64,000 nucleotides of DNA from Verrucomicrobiia bacterium (GTDB taxonomy: Bacteria > Verrucomicrobiota > Verrucomicrobiia > Palsa-1439), in NCBI GenBank assembly GCA_035515475.1, contig DATJBF010000008.1, positions 1,899 to 65,898 of the forward strand, given 5' to 3'. Under the pieces are notes generated by a model that did not search any database, was not told the DNA's origin, and saw only the letters and a program-made list of their open reading frames with translations. The translations under genes and the position numbers were made by a program. This document shows positions 28,662 to 31,600 of the stretch, in pieces; position 1 is the first letter of the stretch, and each line of letters opens with the position of its first letter.

Positions 28662-31600
28662 ATGGCGAATTCATCACATCACGACAATTTCATCGTTGTT
28701 GAAGGCGCGCGGCAGAACAATCTCAAGGGCATCAATCTCAAGCTGCCGTTGGGCGAACTGACCGTCGTCACCGGCGTCAGCGGCTCGGGCAAATCGTCAC
28801 TGGCGTTCGACACGATCTACGCCGAAGGCCAGCGCCGCTACGTCGAGACGTTCTCACCGTACGCCCGGCAGTTCCTCGACCGCATGGACAAACCGATGGC
28901 CGACCGTATCGAGGGCATCCCGCCATCCATCGCCATTGACCAGACCAATCCGGTCAAGACCTCGCGCTCGACCGTGGGCACGATGACGGAACTCAACGAT
29001 CACCTGAAACTGCTTTTCGCGCGAGCGGCACAGTTGTTTTGCCGTCAATGCCGGAAACCGGTGCGGCGGGACACGGCGGAGACCATCAGCTCTCAGCTCT
29101 CAGCCGTCAGCGGCCAGCTACTGCTCACCTTTCCGGTGCGAGTGCCAAAGAACTTTACCAAACGGGAGGTGGTCGAACTTTTAGCCAAGCAGGGTTACAC
29201 GAAAACTCGTGCCGAAACGGACGAATCGTTGGAAATCATCCAGGACTGTGTCGAGAACACTCCGCGGAACCGCTCGCGGATTGTCGAGTCCCTCGAAGCC
29301 GCGCTGAAACATGGCCAGGGCCGGGTCGATGTCTGGCTTCACGGTACTCCAGCACTCCAATACTCCAGCACTCCGTTCCGTTTCTCTTCCGACCTCCATT
29401 GTCCCGACTGCGACATTCATTACCGCGATCCGGTGCCGAATCTGTTTTCGTTCAACTCGCCGATCGGCGCCTGCGCAGTCTGCCGGGGATTCGGCCGCAC
29501 GATCGGCATCGATTACGGCCTCGTCATTCCCGACGACACCAAGACGCTGGCGGGCGGGGCGGTGAAACCGTGGCAGACCGAGAGCTACAGCGAATGCCAG
29601 GACGACATGATGGAATTCGCACCCAAACGCGGCATCCCGACCGATGTTCCGTGGCGCGAACTTGCCGACGCGCAGCGCAACTGGGTCATCGACGGCGAAG
29701 GGAGTTGGGAGGACAACGTCTGGTACGGCGTGAAACGGTTTTTCGACTGGCTGGAGACCAAGAGTTACAAAATGCACGTCCGTGTGCTGTTGTCGCGCTA
29801 CCGCAGTTATGTCCCGTGCAAAGCCTGCGGCGGGGCGCGCTTGAAACCGGAGGCGCTGCTGTGGCGGCTGCCGTCTTCCGATACTGTCACCCTGAACGAG
29901 GTGAAGGGTCTCACAAACGAGCGAGAGATTCCTCGCTCCGCTCGGAATGACAACGCAAGGAAAGACGGTTTGACCATCCACGATGTGATGCTCCTGCCAA
30001 TTTCAGAGTGTCATCGTTATTTCAGCGAGCTGCGACTTCCCGCCCCGCTCGACGAAGCCGCCGAACTCCTCCTCGATGAAATCCGCACTCGGCTCCGCTA
30101 CCTCGTCGACGTCGGTCTGGGTTATCTGACGCTCGACCGTCAATCGCGCACGCTCAGCGGGGGCGAAGTCCAACGCGTCAACCTCACCACCGCGCTCGGC
30201 ACGTCGCTGGTCAACACGCTCTATGTTCTCGACGAACCCAGCATCGGCCTGCATCCGCGCGACATCAACCGCCTCATTGGGGTCCTTCATCGACTGCGCG
30301 ATGCGGGCAACACATTGCTCGTTGTCGAGCACGACCCCGATGTCATCCGCGCCGCCGATCGGATTCTCGACCTCGGCCCCGGGCCCGGGGAGCGGGGCGG
30401 CGAAGTCGTGTTCTTTGGCCCGCAGCAAGACCTGGTGAAATCAAGGCGCTCGCTCACCGCGCAATACCTTCGGGGCGACAAATCGGTCGGTATTCGTCGC
30501 CGCCCATTGCCGATCGCCCATCGCCCGTCACTGAGAATCCTCGGCGCGTCCGAGCACAACCTCAAGAGCATCGACGTCGAAATTCCCCTGAACCGTATCG
30601 TTTGCATTACCGGCGTGAGCGGCTCGGGCAAATCCACCCTTGTGCAGGACGTGCTCTACAACGCGCTGCGGAAATTGAAACACAAACCGGCCGAGCAACC
30701 GGGCCAGCACAAGCGGATCACGGGCCACGACCAGGTCGGGGGCGTGGTATTGGTTGACCAGTCGCCTATCGGCCGCACCACGCGCTCGAACCCGGCAAGC
30801 TACGTCGGCGCGTTCGATGCCATCCGCAAATTATTCGCCGCCCAGCCGCTGGCGAAGGAGCGCAGCTATTCGGCGGGCACGTTCAGCTTCAATTCCGGCG
30901 AGGGACGTTGTCCGACGTGCCACGGCAACGGCTTCGAGCACATCGAGATGCAATTCCTCAGCGACGTGTACCTCCGCTGTCCCGACTGCGACGGCAAGCG
31001 GTATCGCAAGGAGATCTTGGATGTGACATTGCCGGAACAATGTTACCCTGAGCGGAGCGAAGGGTCTCCCAAGAACGAGAGAGAGATTCCTCGCTCCGCT
31101 CGGAATGACAAACGAGGCAAGTCCATCGCCGACGTTCTCGAGATGACCGTCAACGAAGCCTGCGGGTTCTTTGCCGGTTCTCCGGAAATCTTGCGCGGGC
31201 TCGAACCGTTGCGTGCGGTCGGACTCGGTTACGTGAAACTGGGTCAGCCCGTGCCGACGCTCAGCGGCGGCGAAGCGCAACGGCTGAAGTTGGCCGGATA
31301 TTTGGCGGAGGCGAAGGCAGGGTCGGACCGCCGGGCCGTCCGCGATCAGACCACGGCGCGCCCGGCCCTTCGACTTCGCTCAGGGCAGGCTCTCGTGCCC
31401 CACCACCGCACGCTGTTCCTGTTCGACGAGCCGACCACGGGCCTGCACTTCGACGACATTGCGACGCTTCTGAAGGCGTTCGACCAACTCGTTCAGCGCG
31501 GGCATTCGGTTGTCGTCATCGAGCACAACCTCGACGTGATCCGCGCCGCGGATTGGATTATCGATCTCGGCCCCGAAGGTGGCGACGCTGGCGGCGAAGT

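Follow-up and report, generated by a model that had tools for sequence, protein, structure and literature searches.

Dispersed hairpin repeats in the loops of a tandem uvrA gene from a Verrucomicrobiia bacterium

A 64-kb stretch of the genome of a Verrucomicrobiia bacterium (contig DATJBF010000008.1 of assembly GCA_035515475.1; hereafter the window) contains an intact uvrA gene (28662-34436, plus strand) which, according to the list of open reading frames (ORFs) and their translation, encodes a tandem (double) UvrA protein of 1924 amino acids (aa). Several short segments of this gene are very probably non-autonomous, hairpin-forming, dispersed repeats of the repetitive extragenic palindromic (REP) class that have been inserted into the coding sequence. 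The protein consists of two complete UvrA modules and a joining linker, with four sets of Walker and signature repeats, and a phmmer search of the PDB aligned it with UvrA of Thermotoga maritima (3PIH; E=2.7e-223). Its orthologs include the 1995-aa Oter_2709 of Opitutus terrae. About seven palindromic inserts, belonging to at least two REP superfamilies, were recognized in the gene. The evidence is set out below for the three insertion sites of module 1, referred to as sites 1, 2, and 3.

Anatomy of the repeats and their position in UvrA

The 31-nt sequence GAGAGATTCCTCGCTCCGCTCGGAATGACAA occurs in exactly two identical copies in the window, at 29923-29953 and 31081-31111, while none was expected from shuffled sequences. 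An earlier note, made from the sequence alone, had described these copies as the core of a repeat of about 50 nt inserted in frame at structurally equivalent sites. The repeat itself was confirmed, but alignment of both neighborhoods (29885-29953 versus 31041-31111) showed that the likeness spans ∼70 nt, and that the 31-mer is the right arm of a head-to-head doublet of this length, built from a hairpin unit of ∼27 nt. The unit of this main family comprises (i) a 5′ tag [T/C]GTC, (ii) a covarying stem of 5 bp starting with A-T, (iii) the apex GAGCGNAGCGA, and (iv) a CTC tail. The apex combines tandem G.A mismatches with a d(GCGNAGC) mini-hairpin (G-A / GC-GNA-GC / G-A), in which all four bases occur at the loop position N. 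The d(GCGNAGC) sequence forms an extraordinarily stable DNA mini-hairpin, with a melting temperature of 70-76°C irrespective of N, and only GNA triloops have this property (PMC13037366). An apex of this kind points to a form of the element folded as single-stranded DNA.

In the site-1 doublet (29885-29953, plus strand) the left unit, TGTCACCCTGAACGAGGTGAAGGGTCTC, is degenerate and the right unit, GAGATTCCTCGCTCCGCTCGGAATGACA, is perfect, with 12 nt of spacer between them; the doublet encodes aa 408-431 (TVTLNEVKGLTNEREIPRSARNDN), past the CxxC of the zinc module of nucleotide-binding domain I (NBD-I). In the site-2 doublet (31041-31111, plus strand) the left unit TGTTACCCTGAGCGGAGCGAAGGGTCTC is followed by a 14-nt spacer and by the same right unit as at site 1, giving the arrangement TGTTA-CCCT-GAGCGGAGCGA-AGGG-TCTC, spacer, GAGA-TTCC-TCGCTCCGCTC-GGAA-TGACA. 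This doublet encodes aa 794-817 (CYPERSEGSPKNEREIPRSARNDK), past the C-terminal zinc finger of NBD-II. The right units of the two sites are identical (29/29), and the left units differ at 5 of 28 positions, with three apex substitutions in the left unit of site 1; the spacers share the sequence AACGAG. All main-family copies in the window are tagged TGTCA or TGTTA. Five of the six reading frames of the unit are open. The copies in uvrA use only hydrophilic frames (CHPERSEGS, VTLSEAKGL, EIPRSARND); none is read in the hydrophobic frame, ERFLAPLGMT.

The third insertion has two parts, an older degenerate GTAG-type REP, common to the window and its closest relative (L141; L and P numbers denote loci and proteins, respectively), followed by a unit of the TGTC superfamily. 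The former, site 3a (31317-31341, plus strand), has the sequence GCAGGGTCGGACCGCCGGGCCGTCC, and an intact GTAGGGACGGACCGCCGGGCCGTCC is found at the same position in L141; the peptide that the first half of site 3 encodes, AKxGxDRRAVRDQTTARP, is confined to the window and L141. The latter, site 3b (31361-31390, minus strand), is a single unit from a variant subfamily that has one additional T. Its reverse complement gcctgCCCTgagcgaagtcgaAGGGccggg reads CCCT-GAGCGAAGTCGA-AGGG, and the unit encodes RPALRLRSGQA, immediately ahead of the Walker B motif of NBD-II. As the earlier note had observed, the motif within this unit (CCTTCGACTTCGCTCAGGGCAGG, 31367-31389) recurs in intergenic DNA, at 17623-17645, with one mismatch.

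Several observations concur that these segments are additions to a standard UvrA module. Sites 1 and 2 are paralogous positions, each 14 residues past the last CxxC of a zinc module and right before the motif G-x-[ST]-I-x-D-V, and the ORF is uninterrupted, which bears out the claim of in-frame insertion at equivalent sites. The phmmer alignment to 3PIH breaks at all three sites, in agreement with the proposal that these loops have no counterpart in solved UvrA structures: residues 401-432 of the query face approximately one 3PIH residue (399), residues 790-817 face residue 756, and residues 885 to ∼916 face residues 824-826. Among 120 homologues the three sites are hypervariable, and the minimal lengths of the aligned segments are 14, 17, and 22 residues, compared with 45, 44, and 50 in the window. 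An AlphaFold2 model of module 1 (mean predicted local distance difference test score, pLDDT, 85.1; predicted TM-score 0.80), which superposes on the crystal structure 3UWX_A with TM-scores of 0.80/0.82, has pLDDT values below 50 only at 420-426, 794-812, and 890-913, i.e., in the three inserts, besides the N-terminus/termini and residues 99-104; at site 1, residues 411-430 score about 50-55. Judged by this model, the inserted segments are predicted to sit in disordered surface loops or linkers, the location that the earlier note had anticipated.

In local folding, the site-2 doublet is among the two strongest outliers of the window (z -4.2; z -3.8 when folded as DNA). No match to Rfam 15 was obtained for the whole window at gathering thresholds, and permissive thresholds applied to 28540-31460 yielded chance-level hits only (E>2). 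Generic counts in the window were not above chance either, with 12 perfect hairpins versus 7-16 in shuffles and nine GTAG-plus-hairpin patterns versus 4-10; only family-specific comparisons are informative.

Copies outside the gene and orthologous sites

The TGTC unit is not confined to uvrA. An intergenic main-family unit, tgtcaTTCTgagcgaagcgaAGAAcctcc, is located on the minus strand at 28596-28624, in the 96-nt spacer preceding uvrA and 37 nt upstream of its start codon, and an intergenic sibling of the site-3b unit, acctgCCCTgagcggagtcgaAGGGagccg, lies at 17617-17646 (minus strand) between two minus-strand genes. Within the window uvrA, which makes up 9% of the sequence, holds five of the seven TGTC-superfamily units (binomial P 1e-4) or, when insertion events are counted, three of five (binomial P 6e-3). 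The exact 31-mer was found in at least 120 metagenome stretches, mostly soil and peat contigs, and represents the consensus sequence of a soil element that is abundant. A degenerate pattern of the unit, the variant (site-3b) subfamily, and a pattern unconstrained in the stem were each found in at least 120 viral-contig stretches. The repeats thus do not occur only in this gene, and the suggestion that dispersed mini-repeats have colonized coding DNA, in the manner of the Rickettsia palindromic elements (RPEs), is supported by the copy upstream of uvrA as well as by those in metagenomes and viral contigs.

Comparison of 141 distinct units defined the family more closely. The three variable stem pairs are fully Watson-Crick in 140 of them (TA/CG switches), 89% carry the tag TGTC and 9% CGTC, the first stem pair is A-T in 92% and the second T-A in 95%, and the tail is CTC (positions 24-26: C 99%, T 80%, C 59%). 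Among 36 distinct units obtained with the stem-free search pattern, 30 have all four stem positions paired, and each pair is Watson-Crick in 89-97% of units, versus 37-73% expected from column composition.

The canonical metagenome copy is an 87-nt doublet consisting of TTGTCATTCCGAGCGGAGCGAGGAATCTCTC, a 25-nt spacer, and the 31-mer. The metagenome loci contained 52 canonical doublets of 82-92 nt, and 18 doublets of the TGTC unit were counted among the loci compared. Since 134 of 152 metagenome units have no spanning ORF (the 18 spanning frames give a junk-like translation), the family is normally intergenic and the uvrA copies are exceptional. An outer palindrome, CTGCGGAAAAAGT-N8-[doublet]-N8-ACTTTTTCCGCAG, often encloses the canonical doublet. 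This palindrome was seen in L209, L223, L225, L253, and other metagenome loci, with the right arm ACTTTTTCCGCAGCCTG, and the mosaic recalls bacterial interspersed mosaic elements (BIMEs) and their neisserial counterparts (NIMEs). A blastn search of PLSDB plasmids with the canonical 91-nt doublet gave no match. When the 30-aa site-2 peptide was compared with 1.84 billion representative proteins, seven matches were obtained, mostly spurious ORFs, this query being too short to survey in-frame hosts.

Two further observations concern possible translated copies. Predicted proteins P0121 (439 aa) and P0123 (268 aa) consist of five to six tandem copies of a repeat of ∼72 or ∼45 aa, each with CHPERSEGS, which suggests that the unit also forms longer tandem arrays translated by gene callers. 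On a viral contig (L016, 6012-8765), a 918-codon frame of phage structural type has EIPRFARND soon after its candidate start methionine, possibly an in-frame unit in a phage gene.

The closest relatives of the window among GTDB representatives are Verrucomicrobiota metagenome-assembled genomes (MAGs), namely L141 (78% identity) and L125-L127 (∼70%). The occupancy of the sites in orthologs is patchy, contrary to what would be expected of ordinary conserved sequence. The close orthologs P0001, P0027, P0044, and P0033 have minimal loops at the sites. The site-1 doublet is absent from P0001, P0088, and L125, while site 2 is empty in L123, P0044, P0001, and P0033; in L123 (encoding P0027) both sites are empty at the DNA level. 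Protein P0005 (L124) is filled, whereas its sister P0001 is empty at both sites. The ortholog pattern is clearly dynamic.

Where the sites are filled, the inserts vary in kind. Both L124 and L141 have TGTC doublets at site 1, with spacers of 18 and 33 nt, respectively, and GTAG...CTAC palindromes at site 2. In L121 (P0065) a TGTC doublet occupies site 2 at the same codon and with the same length as in the window but with an unrelated spacer, and its stems covary (TCCT/AGGA versus CCCT/AGGG in the window). A site-2 doublet is present at the identical codon in at least five orthologs (the window, P0015, P0065, P0088, and P0096), with a core identity of 79-83%, and its units are better conserved (∼86%) than the spacer. 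Among 81 ortholog loci, perfect stems of at least 10 bp were found in the site-2/site-3 inserted DNA of nine loci. Two of these orthologous genes, those of L160 and L174 (Burkholderiales), carry CGTC-1 doublets at site 3, of the form CGTCA-CCCCCGC-GAAA-GCGGGGG-TCCA ... TGACG.

Some particulars of these loci may be added. The CGTC-1 doublets of L160 (11150-11287) and L174 (12683-12805), both from Burkholderiales/Betaproteobacteria orthologs, encode VTPAKAGVQ...LDSRFRGND, and other site-3 peptides derived from repeats are TTPALHATPPLKGGE... in L172 and PSPLPSMRGEG...SGERVGVRG in L176. The gene with the site-2 doublet in L121/L122 (6001-8865; P0065) encodes a stand-alone module 1 of 954 aa to which no second UvrA module is fused, and it adjoins genes for ThsB-TIR, a methyltransferase, a Bpu10I-like restriction enzyme, and MazE. 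In L123 (6001-11490; P0027) the tandem uvrA was called as two ORFs of 1137 and 595 aa, suggesting a frameshift or disruption in module 2. The same gene has a GTAG REP doublet in frame at 7713-7777, a fourth insertion site located between NBD-I and NBD-II.

Origin of the insertions

By analogy with REP elements mobilized by REP-associated tyrosine transposases (RAYTs) and with the IS200/IS605 insertion sequences (PMC3116915, PMC2817692), the units may have been inserted by some enzyme through hairpin intermediates of single-stranded DNA. Purifying selection would then have left only the copies that are in frame, free of stops, and located in loops, and those in uvrA would have survived for keeping the frame, having no stop in the frame used, and lying in disordered loops or linkers. 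The crowding of units in the uvrA loops would accordingly represent a tolerance filter and not precise targeting. Copies would later decay, be lost or replaced, and occasionally be homogenized by gene conversion.

Several points weigh against the view that these are inserted dispersed repeats. We infer mobility, and the flanks of the units examined show no consistent target-site duplication. Neither a transposase nor a RAYT was found among the 20 ORFs of the window, and no recurrent gene adjoins or separates the units over ∼3 Mb of loci, where ORF clustering gave only phage structural genes. Copies within the genome were counted in the 64-kb window only, the best genome match having 78% identity. 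The neighbor-joining tree of the orthologs is star-like, and gains and losses cannot be reliably counted from it. The long retention of the site-2 doublet could reflect selection on the hairpin or the peptide, beyond mere tolerance. Finally, single units are unremarkable in stability when folded with ViennaRNA DNA parameters, because nearest-neighbor parameters miss GNA mini-hairpins (PMC13037366), and the mini-hairpin argument rests on the literature.

The similarity of sites 1 and 2 could also be attributed to an internal duplication, or to gene conversion between paralogous loops near the zinc fingers, with no dispersed element involved. The asymmetry of the doublets, with identical right arms (29/29), a shared AACGAG in the spacers, and left arms with 5 differences in 28 positions, agrees with a conversion tract of short length. 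However, the unit exists outside the gene, in the rest of the window, in the metagenome stretches with the exact 31-mer, in other genes, in intergenic DNA, and on viral contigs. Conversion can explain only how two copies were homogenized and not how they arose; as the sole explanation it is refuted by the dispersed copies, and an exclusively internal origin is highly improbable. Since the 31-mer is the family consensus, the identity of sites 1 and 2 does not in itself prove intragenic copying. The perfect right arm of site 1 stands beside a decayed left arm, and the spacer tail of its doublet, ACAAACGAG, is common to the orthologous site-1 doublet of L141. Together, these sequence features suggest that site 1 may be an old insertion whose right half was homogenized later by gene conversion, with site 2 or a different copy in the genome as the donor.

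Two further explanations invoke selection for the inserts themselves. The encoded peptides might be selected protein features, e.g., flexible arms near the zinc modules that modulate the binding of DNA or partners, with the palindromy an exapted relic. Consistent with this, the site-2 doublet has been kept at the same codon in at least five orthologs and the uvrA copies occur only in hydrophilic frames. Nevertheless, we regard it as decidedly unlikely, given that the inserts have low pLDDT and no predicted structure, that close orthologs function with minimal loops, that unrelated REP families in the same loops encode unrelated peptides, and that the compensatory stem changes (CCCT/AGGG versus TCCT/AGGA) alter the peptide. 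Alternatively, the hairpins might be kept for a role in uvrA mRNA or DNA, as an RNase/stability element, a translational pause at a domain boundary, or a regulatory site, REPs having been recruited to repair genes. In favor of such a role, the units are more conserved than the spacers, stem covariation is kept within the gene, the single promoter-like site of the spacer takes its -35-like hexamer from the upstream unit, and the literature notes that intragenic REPs are in unexplained excess among genes for DNA replication and repair (PMC3733652). Against it speak the decay of the left unit of site 1 (three apex substitutions), the loss or replacement of the elements in sister lineages, and the lack of a matching Rfam family. 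On the sequence data we consider a nucleic acid-level role quite unlikely.

An assembly or binning artefact, with a repeat misjoined into the gene, is close to negligible as an explanation. Nothing specific favors it, apart from the window probably stemming from a metagenome-derived assembly, as its closest relatives are MAGs. The frame is kept through seven palindromic inserts in the 1924-aa ORF, and equivalent insertions exist in independent assemblies, of which L121 (ENA) and L122 (JGI) are identical, and in L124 and L141.

A broader hypothesis, which we judge unlikely, goes beyond tolerated insertion. The tandem uvrA might be a preferred or co-opted landing site of REPs, functionally linked to them through expression control or through a UvrA paralogue acting on hairpin/cruciform DNA, and the TGTC/GNA family might be an undescribed, extremely abundant superfamily of soil REPs that spreads without a recognizable transposase. 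It is prompted by the recurrence of TGTC, CGTC-1, GTAG, and other REPs in the same few loops and linkers across phyla, and by the unit that provides the -35 of the putative promoter.

Relation to known repeats and further features of the window

According to Di Nocera et al. (2013, BMC Genomics 14:522, PMC3733652), REPs fall into GTAG- and CGTC-tagged superfamilies, the CGTC tag often being replaced by variants such as TGTC and CCTC. In CGTC REPs the stem is 8-9 bp long and starts with A-T at positions 1 and 2, the loop has 4-5 nt, and the tail consensus is CCA; head-to-head dimers, often heterodimers, prevail, and no transposase gene is linked to them (PMC3733652). The superfamily includes RPE-4 and RPE-6 of Rickettsia conorii and the neisserial dRS3 repeat, and was reported from Proteobacteria, Chlorobi, Bacteroidetes, Spirochaetes, and Thermotogae only, not from Verrucomicrobia (PMC3733652). 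Peptides encoded by CGTC-1 repeats include CHSRESGDP (in uvrC) and SFLRKQES...LDSRFRGND (PMC3733652).

The TGTC family agrees with the CGTC REPs in its tag, the A-T/T-A start of the stem, the short unpaired 3′ tail, head-to-head dimers, and in-frame copies that include nucleotide excision repair genes. It is likewise of high copy number, dispersed, and mainly intergenic, and no linked transposase was found for the unit within the limited sample of loci. The encoded peptides run parallel to those of the CGTC repeats, RPE-4, and RPE-6 (CHSRESGDP / ..RFRGND versus CHPERSEGS, or CYPERSEGS, / ..RSARND), the likeness consisting of tag and peptide. In addition, a bona fide CGTC-1 doublet (CGTCACCCCCGCGAAAGCGGGGGTCCA...) fills site 3 of the orthologous gene in L160. 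The differences lie in the TGTC-family apex, which replaces the perfect 8-9-bp stem with its 4-5-nt loop (the TGTC unit has nine stacked positions counting two G.A mismatches, seven of them Watson-Crick, and a 3-nt GNA loop), in the tail, which is CTC and not CCA, and in the host, a soil Verrucomicrobium. By architecture, and as far as a comparison with the published descriptions goes, the TGTC family is a sister, with a TGTC tag, to the CGTC superfamily of REPs, so that the analogy with RPEs comes close to literal.

RPE-1 is a palindromic repeat that occurs in frame within numerous functional genes, where its product is predicted to be tolerated at the surface of the protein (Ogata et al., 2000, as cited in PMC3733652). 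The repeats of the window similarly lie in frame in a functional ORF at permissive sites, i.e., regions of low pLDDT and gaps relative to solved UvrAs. Compared by description only, RPE-1 is presumably distinct from the TGTC repeats in being ∼100-150 bp long, specific to Rickettsia, and unrelated in sequence.

The closest precedent for the host gene is also found among the REPs. Intragenic REPs are frequent in genes for DNA replication and repair, among them the two uvrA genes of O. terrae, Oter_2709 and Oter_3168, where the inserts encode ∼7-30 aa; Oter_3168 carries two dimers, and in Oter_2709, an excinuclease A subunit of 1995 aa and hence a tandem UvrA, the supplement lists GTAG-19 REPs at aa 638-644 and 1601-1623 (PMC3733652). 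The two cases share the phylum and the gene family, the inserts in the linker and module 2 of the window gene are of the GTAG type, and the site-2 insert of L141 encodes ..GVPP..HGRDARAT, like GTAG-19. They differ in that the doublets of sites 1 and 2 are tagged TGTC and not GT[AG]G, and in that the window gene has more inserts (∼7), from at least two superfamilies.

The REPINs of REPIN/RAYT systems (Bertels and Rainey, 2011, PMC3116915; Nunvar et al., 2010, PMC2817692) resemble the TGTC doublets in consisting of a pair of inverted hairpin units with a short spacer in between, and in their tag-plus-hairpin organization, and enterobacterial GTAG REPs have the AAGCGNAGCGC apex in common with the TGTC family. 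On the other hand, the TGTC tag is not GTAG, and no RAYT was found in the 64-kb window or beside the units. Identical 31-mers across many metagenome samples also contrast with the REPIN populations, which those papers present as mostly lineage-specific and vertically inherited (PMC3116915, PMC2817692). Miniature inverted-repeat transposable elements (Correia/NEMIS, Nezha, ERIC) are, like the TGTC repeats, short, non-coding, and hairpin-forming, with TG...CA-like termini (TGTCA...TGACA), and an outer inverted repeat flanks the canonical soil copy; in contrast to them, the TGTC family showed no consistent target-site duplication, and no parent insertion sequence with matching ends was seen.

The phenomenon, the phylum, and the gene family therefore all have precedents. 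A literature search by literal sequence found no paper spelling out the TGTC/GNA unit, and what appears to be new is the TGTC/GNA mini-hairpin family itself and the recurrent use of the same three loops across phyla. The published pattern of REPs in DNA-repair genes, notably uvrA, is thereby extended to a new repeat family, to metagenomic lineages, and to three recurrent landing-pad loops, and a very abundant soil repeat with a d(GCGNAGC) mini-hairpin apex is brought to light. Selfish hairpin repeats of this kind would lengthen an essential-type enzyme by 20-30 disordered residues while leaving its fold unharmed, and would thus be raw material for new protein loops. Recognizing them should improve annotation, since they seed spurious small ORFs and odd protein insertions.

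The remaining inserts of the gene are of other types. A GTAG-type REP doublet (31667-31734, plus strand) lies in frame in the inter-module linker and encodes aa ∼1002-1025 (RCSGGLRPSKASERNRRSQSAATV). It is a copy of an intergenic GTAG doublet of REPIN-like architecture (19011-19083, plus strand), which served as the reference for the linker insertion, and the same family is also present inside the uvrA gene of L123 (7713-7777) and, in a Methylacidiphilum MAG (L184, 8509-8576), in the linker of uvrA. The earlier note had stated that the second UvrA module lacks all three insertions. This holds for these families at these sites, but module 2 contains inserts of its own. A GTAG-type REP, GTAGgGACGGCTCgccGAGCCGTC (33472-33495, minus strand), is in frame at aa ∼1603-1612, in a loop that is hypervariable among orthologs. 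This loop lies close to the position of the GTAG-19 dimer reported at aa 1601-1623 of Oter_2709 (PMC3733652). A long imperfect palindrome (∼34044-34130, plus strand; minimum free energy -58.6 kcal/mol for 137 nt) keeps the frame at the place in module 2 that corresponds to site 3 (aa ∼1795-1823). Where its positions correspond to the module-1 loops, module 2 likewise contains hypervariable loops (window 34026-34162; aa 1596-1617). Another REP-like imperfect palindrome inside module 2, TGTAGCGGTGGCCGTAGACCGCCGCTCTAG (32438-32467), encodes ..IVAVAVDRRSS.. and may be a decayed GTAG REP or a chance resemblance.

In the spacer between the DUF488 gene and uvrA, the sole sigma-70-like site (28619-28647) consists of ATGACA, 17 nt, and TAGAGT, and its -35-like hexamer ATGACA is the terminus of the intergenic TGTC unit at 28596-28624. 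Orthologs share a conserved leader, TA[CG]AGT-AGCGNCGCGAGT-ATG, which implies a very short 5′ untranslated region. In L123 and L127 the -35 is TTGCCA instead of ATGACA, and the orthologous spacer in L123 is 9 nt only.

Elsewhere in the window, two very long ORFs overlap on opposite strands at 24602-27973. The minus-strand ORF has nitrite/sulfite reductase domains, while the plus-strand ORF has an Era-like GTPase and a KH domain only within its last ∼300 aa; the first ∼800 aa probably represent an antisense frame that is spurious.

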